DNA from: a virus
Lineage: Duplodnaviria; Heunggongvirae; Uroviricota; Caudoviricetes
Virus record (IMG/VR): IMGVR_UViG_2585427765_000010
Direction: 5' to 3' (one strand)
DNA: 5,220 bases
The notes under the pieces: generated by a model
Told to the model about the DNA's origin: nothing
What the model saw: the letters and a program-made list of their open reading frames with translations, nothing else
Databases searched by the model: none
Made by a program: the position numbers and the translations under genes
Shown: piece after piece, positions 2,806 to 5,220 of the stretch
Layout of the letters: each line of letters opens with the position of its first letter
Position numbering within the stretch: position 1 is the stretch's first letter

Positions 2806-5220
2806 TCAGCTGATACTGATACCTGCTGTGGATTTTTTCATCACCACAACCAGCAGATCGCTGATACTGGTTGTTGGTGTCCAGTCATTCGCTCCTGATG
2901 AAGATACGGTGAATGTCAGTGTCAGCGTCCCCTGTCCGGCAGGCATATCTATAACTGAGGAAAATACGCCATGAACATCCGTCGTGGACTGATTAAAAAT
3001 CTCCTGACCATTGCGGGTCACTCTTAACCGGCAGGTTGAATACCAGTATGACTGTTGGTTATTACTGTTGAAATTCTCATGCTTACCACCGCGGAATAAC
3101 ACTGGCGGTATCATGACCTGCCGGTCAAATTTCTGATCATCACTGATTCTTACCGTGATGGTGCCGCTGGCATAAGTGCTCGTGCGGGGGAAAGACTTGC
3201 TGACCGTTTTGACAATATCGCCTTCAATCTGGTTGGCTGACAGTTTCCCCTTAATCTGACAGTTCTCATTAATCGTGACGTTGTTGAGCGTCCCGGAGTT
3301 CGCATTCACACTGCCACTGATATCCGCATTTTTAGCGGTCAGCTTTCCGTCCGGTGTCAGGGAAAATGCCGGTGGATTTCCACCGCTGGTAATGGTGGGG
3401 GCCGTCAGGCGCTTCAGGAACACATCGTTCATGAATATCTGGTTGCCCTGCGCCACAAACATCGGCGTTTCATTCCCGTTTGCCGGGTCAATAAACGCGA
3501 TACGGTTAGCGGCAACCAGAAACTGGCTCAGTTTGCCTTCCTCCGTGTCCTCCATACTGAGGCCAATACCCGCGACATAATGTTTGCCGTCTTTGGTCTG
3601 CTCAATTTTGACGCCCCACATGGCATTCCATTTATCGTTGGCGTCTTTCCACTCTTTCGAAAACTCCTCCAGTCTGCTGGCGTTATCCTCCGTCAGGTCG
3701 ACTTTTTCCAGCAGCTCCTTGCCGAGATGGGATTCGGTTATCTGGCCTTTGAAAAAATCCAGGTAACCTTCCGCATCATCGCTCGCCCGACCAACAGCCT
3801 CCACGAATGCCGATTTGCCAACGGTGTTCACACTGCGGATATAAAAGTAATAATCATGGCCCGGTTTGATATTGATACTGGCGGCTATCCAGTACATCCC
3901 CGTGCCAAGATAGCGCGCGCTGGTTTCAACCTGCCTGATATCCGCAATCCGCTTTTCCGAGAACCAGAACTCAAACTGTACCGTCGGATCATAAACCGCA
4001 AGATGCGGCGTGGCGGTTATCTGAAAATACCCCGGTGTCAGCTCAATCTGCGACGGCGCTGCCGGTGCGGCAATCCGGAACGATACCGATGCCGGATCGC
4101 CCTGCTGCCCCCACGCATTTACTGCCCGGACTGTCAGCCTGTAGTTCCCCAGCGCCAGTTGTGTGAAGCGGTATGTGGTTTCCGCCGTCCGGGCTGTGCT
4201 GACCAGCCGCTCACTGCCGTCATCCGCTGCCACGGTCAGGCGAAGCATAAAGCTCACCCCCTTCACCACCTTCGGCGTGTCCCAGCGGGCCAGTACCTGA
4301 TATTCCCCGCTGTCTGCGGTGACTTCGGCAGTCAGGTGCTGCACCGCTGGCGGCGTGACACCATTCACCGTGCCGCTCTGGTCGCCGTCAAAGTGCGCCC
4401 CGTTATCCACGATGGCCTCTTTTTCCGGTACATGCTGCACGGCGGTGATGGCATACATACCGTCGTCGTTCTCACGGATACTCACGCAGCGGAACAGGCG
4501 CTGGCGCAGCGTCGGCAGCTTCAGCCCCCACACGCTGTATCCGGCAACGCCGTCAGGAACACGGCTCACTTTTACCTTCACGCCGTCGGTGACGGACTGG
4601 ACCTCCACGCTGACCGGATTGCCACTTCCGTCAACCAGGCTTATCAGCGTGGTACCGGAGGATGGCAGCGTGATTTCACGGTCGAGCGTCAGCGTCCGGG
4701 TCTGGCTGTTCACCGCCAGCACGCGCCCGCCGGTGCTGATACCGGCATAGTCATCATCGCAGATTTCAATGACATCGCCCGGCACATGGCGAAGCCCTTC
4801 TGCGCCCACGCTGAAATCCACGGTCTGTGTTTCCAGCAGTTCTGTTTTAATCAGCCACAGCCCGGCGCGATGTGCCTGCCCCCGGCTGGTACAGCCAAAG
4901 GCATCCATCTTCGTGACGTTACGACCGTAACGGGCAATGGCCTGCGTGTCCTCCACAAGCTCTGTCGCCGTCTCCCAGCCGTTATTCGGGTCAATCCAGT
5001 TCACCTCAACGGCATTATGGCGGTCCTTCAGGGCGCTGAAGCTGTAGCGGAACGGCGCGCCATCATCCGGCATCACCACATTACTGCGGTTATAGGTCCA
5101 CACCTTATCTGATGGTCGGTCCTGCACGAACGTCAGCGTCTGCCCGTTCCATACCGGCATACAGCGCATCGCCGAGCAGAAATCACTGAGCACATCCCAC
5201 GCCTTGCGCTGTGTGGTCAG
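2806..5220 (-). CDS. J: Tail tip / host specificity protein J (central tail fibre), C-terminal ~805 aa; 5' end lies outside the window.
   Basis: The frame stays open to the window edge: codons 5194-5220 read LTTQRKAWD before [22 protein letters not shown]..., so the M at 5193 in the ORF track is an internal GTG, not the start. The sequence is nearly identical to the lambda J mid-region as recalled, then diverges in the last ~150 aa. Stop TGA at 2806-2808. Confidence 0.95.

Follow-up and report, generated by a model that had tools for sequence, protein, structure and literature searches.

In the J protein of phage lambda (P03749; PDB entries: 8iyk and 8xcj), which binds LamB, four loops of the Ig-like receptor-binding domain (RBD) are inserted into the LamB trimer, and this insertion opens the RBD, with a twist being transmitted up the fiber until the tail tip opens (Ge and Wang 2024, PMC11101478). 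The loops of OmpC, as reported with the lambda-LamB structure, clash with the open lambda RBD (PMC11101478). OmpC is the receptor of other J tips. The A8 chimera, in which the C-terminus of a natural E. coli gpJ is fused to lambda J at residue 964, was obtained by selection on cells from which lamB had been deleted (Brödel et al., Nature 2024, PMC11338833), and its delivery into MG1655 lacking both lamB and ompC requires a plasmid-borne ompC (PMC11338833). A8 works with the OmpC proteins of K-12 and EDL933, and when 23 natural OmpC variants are considered, efficient delivery is obtained for 21 of them by A8, by a second chimera, 1A2, or by both (PMC11338833). The pattern of a lambda-like body carrying a divergent tip has already been described for Lambda_2H10 (GenBank entry: LR595862; Andrews and Fields 2020), whose RBD protein is identical to that of A8. 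The tip of phi330 (vB_EcoS_phi330, PV189401), a long-tailed Stx2a phage of the genus Pankowvirus that carries stx2a, is also OmpC-dependent: the Keio strain deleted for ompC yields no plaques, and a chromosomal Plac-ompC rescues the phage (PMC12502783). Phage 21 uses LamB natively, and the single substitution I1025T confers the use of OmpC (PMC11336670).

The window described here is the whole stretch of 5,220 nucleotides, the minus strand of which carries J, lom and the 5' part of stf, whereas the end of an insertion sequence is found on the plus strand. The gene for J, the tip attachment or central tail fiber protein, occupies 2806..5220 (minus strand) and is open at the window edge at 5220; its last sense codon is at 2809-2811 and its stop codon at 2806-2808. 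The visible part consists of 804 codons, equivalent to lambda J residues 329-1132, and the N-terminal 328 residues are outside the window. The stop codon is followed by a terminator-like site, an intergenic intrinsic terminator hairpin (2788..2769), and this conserved 3' flank (2769..2808, minus strand) precedes lom (2140..2739, minus strand), which encodes an Ail/Lom outer-membrane β-barrel protein of 199 residues (Pfam Ail_Lom, E 5e-119). The N-terminal 578 codons of the side tail fiber gene stf (347..2081, minus strand; Pfam phage_tail_N) come next, truncated by the right end of an IS3-family element (1..346, plus strand). The gene order J, lom, stf fits a lambda-type tail module. In E. coli E203449, where the corresponding locus is 99.8% identical over the window, homologues of the tape measure protein and of M, L, K and I are found upstream of gpJ. 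The tail genes in the window are the distal ones of a lambda-like prophage of E. coli.

The visible part of J has the domain order of a lambda-type J protein, being a hub, two Ig/FNIII domains, a tail-tip fiber and a C-terminal RBD, as shown by the succession of the Pfam domains Phage-tail_3 (residues 2-170), Ig_J (282-386), Ig_J_second (388-490), Phage_Tail_Tip (517-644) and Ig_GpJ_C (681-804). The body of the protein, visible residues 1-645 (lambda J 329-973; 3286..5220, minus strand), belongs to the lineage of lambda, 434 and 2H10 and spans the hub domains, the two Ig/FNIII domains, the helical shaft and the β-prism fiber. The remainder, about 158 codons (2809..3284, minus strand), is the Ig-like RBD cassette, here referred to as the tip, which is identified by alignment and by a PDB match as being of the A8/2H10/phi330 type. 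Its match to PF12421 (Ig_GpJ_C) scores 125.2 bits (E 2.4e-36), the curated cut-off being 26.2, and its alignment with lambda gpJ713 (PDB entry: 8xcj; E 2e-98) runs from one end to the other. From these sequence matches, the tip is classified as a different allele within the lambda RBD domain family. The best PDB match is A8 gpJ 713 (PDB entries: 9wca and 9wcb; E 1e-163), with five differences in 256 residues.

The boundary between the body and the tip is sharp. When the window J is aligned directly with the lambda J protein of NC_001416, 631 of 650 residues (97.1%) are identical through visible residue 650 (lambda residue 978, near window position 3270), and beyond lambda residue 978 the identity falls to 67 of 154 (43.5%). 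The maximum-likelihood change point is at visible residue 650 (Fisher p = 1.3e-54). The sequence-only reading had described near-identity with lambda J until about residue 640 and a sharply divergent stretch of about 150 residues at 2809-3290, and on both counts it was right to within a few codons. Its suggestion that scattered anchors persist in the divergent part is also borne out, except for the exact letters, which are IDMPAG and GISIS in the window and VDMPAG and GISVV in lambda. That reading was made from the sequence alone, and the apparent divergence might have been an artefact of an inaccurate version of lambda J; the pattern is reproduced by the direct alignment to the NC_001416 protein, and such an artefact can be dismissed. 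At the DNA level, the body is about 95% identical to lambda, and an uninterrupted lambda-identical run at 3338..3285 is followed by mismatches from 3284 onward. The nucleotide joint is thereby placed at 3285/3284. The first amino acid change of the divergent block is S974N (codon 3285-3283), and the changes beyond it include three loop-length differences with respect to lambda.

The window was compared with lambda, 2H10, phage 21, 434, Stx1_111698, BP-4795, VT1-Sakai and phi330. The body and the tip have different histories, as follows from the reciprocal pattern of synonymous divergence (Nei-Gojobori estimates of dS and dN). With respect to lambda, the body has a dS of 0.17 and the tip one of 2.5, which is saturated. 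The reverse is found for the Stx1 phage 111698 (Stx1_111698), with 1.10 in the body and 0.019 in the tip, and for phi330, with 0.96 in the body (dN 0.22) and 0.028 in the tip. The DNA identities agree with this. For the body (5220-3300), the identity with lambda, 434 and 2H10 is 91-100% but drops to 60-80% for the Stx-phage lineage. The tip (3284-2809), in contrast, shares 98% of its nucleotides with Stx1_111698 and 95-100% with 2H10, and blastn gives no match for it in lambda or 434. One and the same tip allele is thus found on two J-body lineages that are 25-40% apart in DNA, and 434 has the flanks of the window on both sides but another RBD. The mosaic joint proposed by the sequence-only reading is therefore confirmed as a product of recombination and not of local drift.

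Fast evolution is well known for phage RBDs, and host-range mutations in the J proteins of lambda and phage 21 appear within days in the laboratory, so that the tip might be thought to have arisen in situ from that of a lambda-like ancestor, under rapid diversifying selection on the receptor-binding residues and without any recombination. Accelerated protein evolution in place is ruled out by the saturation of the synonymous sites of the tip (dS of 2.5, against 0.17 in the body), and it would leave unexplained both the near-identity of the Stx1_111698 tip, at a body dS of 1.10, and a boundary that is sharp to a few bases, beside a patch conserved across lineages. The window also lacks the template repeat of a diversity-generating retroelement. 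We regard divergence in place as extremely improbable. Repeat-templated variation in general was likewise considered and rejected, there being no repeat of the tip region in the window, where the sole repeats found are short and confined to the low-complexity stretch of stf.

Recombination of the tip is accompanied by conserved sequence on both sides. The multiple alignment reveals a conserved patch of 54 nucleotides (3285..3338, minus strand), which encodes the bottom of the fiber just 5' of the RBD. This patch is identical in lambda and 2H10 and differs by two to three bases in 434 and Stx1_111698; upstream of the patch, it is the Stx1 lineage that diverges, and downstream of it, lambda and 434. 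It is likely that the patch (3338-3285) is the 5' crossover zone for tip exchange. The 3' flank, including the terminator hairpin, is kept in 2H10, 434, Stx1_111698, BP-4795, VT1-Sakai and phage 21. The 5' joint lies in or beside the conserved patch, and the 3' joint lies inside the last ~30 bases of J. In the proposed scheme, the last ~158 codons (3284-2809) were acquired by homologous recombination, with crossovers between the fiber-base patch on one side and the conserved gene end and terminator on the other.

The swapped segment ends before lom. When lambda alone is considered, lom also appears divergent, as most of the window lom lacks a blastn match in lambda lom, and a joint cassette of about 1 kb, consisting of the J tip and lom, could be envisaged. 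This was rejected, as 434, 2H10 and the Stx phages share lom whatever their tip. The lom DNA is 92-100% identical to that of 434, 2H10, Stx1_111698 and BP-4795, and 434 lom is 93-98% identical to that of the window although the tips differ. Because 434 shares the lom allele and not the tip, lom is a separate mosaic module, for which lambda lom is the outlier.

When compared with the described systems, the window J is closest to A8 and 2H10, which likewise combine a lambda-lineage body with this RBD allele and have OmpC as the receptor. The J gene of 2H10 has 96.4% nucleotide identity across all 2415 visible bases, and the tip protein is 96.9% identical to those of A8 and 2H10, with five amino acid differences in the last 156 residues (S/N, T/S, V/A, H/Q and D/N, window residue first). 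A8 is an engineered fusion, unlike the natural prophage gene of the window, whose own joint is about 10 codons away from the fusion point. The A8 DNA of the published supplement aligns to window positions 2806-3319, apart from machine-reading noise of the PDF, and its coding differences from the window are those of the PDB chain. The phi330 tip is 98.1% identical and is also followed by lom, but its J body is of another lineage. The Stx1_111698 tip is closer still (98.7%). Lambda J has the same architecture and RBD fold family, with a body that is 97% identical at the amino acid level and an RBD that differs in sequence, in loop lengths and in receptor. In 434, the J body and lom are as in the window (91-100% nucleotide identity), and OmpC is again the target, yet the RBD is only 46.8% identical and represents a separate OmpC-binding solution. 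The RBD of phage 21 belongs to the clade of the window tip (81% amino acid identity), and this phage lacks lom. The tip of VT1-Sakai, the Sakai Stx1 prophage, is a further allele, 64% identical to that of the window; the VT1-Sakai J gene (L009 996-4468) is annotated as split in two by mutation.

The homology to the A8/2H10 and phi330 tips is the reason for assigning OmpC as the receptor of the window J, and the host-range swap to another outer membrane receptor suggested by the sequence-only reading is well founded, given that tips nearly identical to this one are experimentally OmpC-dependent. In addition, PDB entry 9wcb contains, as established by the chain names, three chains of A8 gpJ 713 and three chains of outer membrane porin C. 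We consider it very likely that the window J is a mosaic in which a body of the lambda/434/2H10 lineage carries a recombined tip of the A8/2H10/phi330 type that docks on OmpC. The tip trimer at the end of the tail would then dock on the trimeric porin OmpC and not on the maltoporin LamB, and, by analogy with lambda and LamB, this docking may trigger the opening of the tail tip and the ejection of the DNA. A preprint on receptor prediction was not used for the assignment, as its subject is a Drexlerviridae-type GpJ and not this tip allele.

Three residues of the tip are private to the window when compared with A8, 2H10 and phi330: the valine and the histidine of TDVHGV, where the others have alanine and glutamine, and the aspartate of ANDWTP, where the others have asparagine. 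AlphaFold3 predicts that the OmpC rim is contacted in phi330 by two hairpins, ANNWTP being the second (PMC12502783); the window matches the first exactly and has ANDWTP for the second. Receptor choice is labile in the RBD clade of the window tip. The tip may therefore be a swapped cassette whose allele, on account of the private substitutions or of this lability, recognizes LamB, or a different porin (OmpF, for example), in place of OmpC. The N-to-D change inside a predicted contact hairpin would suit such a specificity, as would the phage 21 RBD, which is natively a LamB binder and is toggled to OmpC and OmpF by few mutations. However, two independently characterized tips (96.9% and 98.1% identical) are both OmpC-dependent, one of them shares a PDB entry with OmpC chains, no change is seen in the other hairpin with predicted contacts, and most natural OmpC variants are tolerated by A8; a receptor other than OmpC is accordingly judged quite unlikely. 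The window allele, with its three private substitutions, would be expected to bind OmpC rather than LamB. By analogy with the phage 21 tip, the A-to-V, Q-to-H and N-to-D changes could conceivably retune the tip to a subset of OmpC variants or permit the use of a second porin, although we think this unlikely.

Downstream of lom, the stf gene is cut after codon 578 by the IS3-family element, the end of which (...GGCGATTCA, terminating in TTCA) is at 346. The element carries the C-terminus of its transposase (14..328) with Integrase-core (rve) domains, and the label "IS3 family transposase" is given by RefSeq at the 99.8%-identical locus of E203449. The stf reading frame (330-2081) continues for a few codons inside the element before reaching a stop, and the matches of stf in other genomes end at window position 347. 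In E. coli RMDEC332, the homologue is intact, with 3603 nucleotides that encode 1200 residues, including an S74 endopeptidase domain. A second mosaic joint is seen inside stf, where the segment 1261-2081 has 75-93% identity to lambda orf-401 until about 1270, after which the similarity is lost. Between 1000 and 1850, stf is of low complexity, rich in Ala, Ser and Thr, with repeated SETNA motifs, and this stretch gives rise to long spurious open reading frames on both strands, for example 1112-1852 (plus strand) and 851-1309 (minus strand). These resemble orf206b, which is annotated opposite orf-401 in lambda.

The prophage may be defective, as stf is cut by the IS element and the closest genome, E203449, has a frameshifted tail gene; functional tails may still be made, and lambda PaPa is likewise without functional side fibers. 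In E203449, the prophage (L003 44547-45220; the same prophage as that of the window, at 99.8% identity) is located at the icd/e14 locus, its M homologue is frameshifted, and its stf region is broken by several IS elements. It also carries iss and, beside the lysis genes, a porin gene annotated as ompC. A prophage whose J would target OmpC and which itself encodes a porin is a curious pairing.

Of the complete E. coli genome records that were searched, about 1,515 contain a tip whose DNA identity to that of the window is 95% or more, and strain AH04 has an exact copy. The tip is also carried by Stx1a and Stx2a phages, dozens of them, as well as by YYZ-2008, CP-1639, Turner and PhiR30_1. It is among the commonest tip alleles of E. 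coli prophages, Stx phages included. Clearly, the window tip is a common and already characterized allele, and its combination with a lambda body is known from 2H10. The module has previously been named, engineered, structurally solved (for a 98%-identical fragment, A8 gpJ 713) and assigned to OmpC, and the locus carries little weight as a discovery; it is a textbook example of lambdoid modular host-range exchange. The 54-nucleotide patch beside the joint provides a natural graft site that can be put to use. The main practical value concerns the annotation of lambda-like J proteins: receptor specificity resides in the last ~155 residues, and LamB should therefore not be presumed for a J protein that is lambda-like over 85% of its length.
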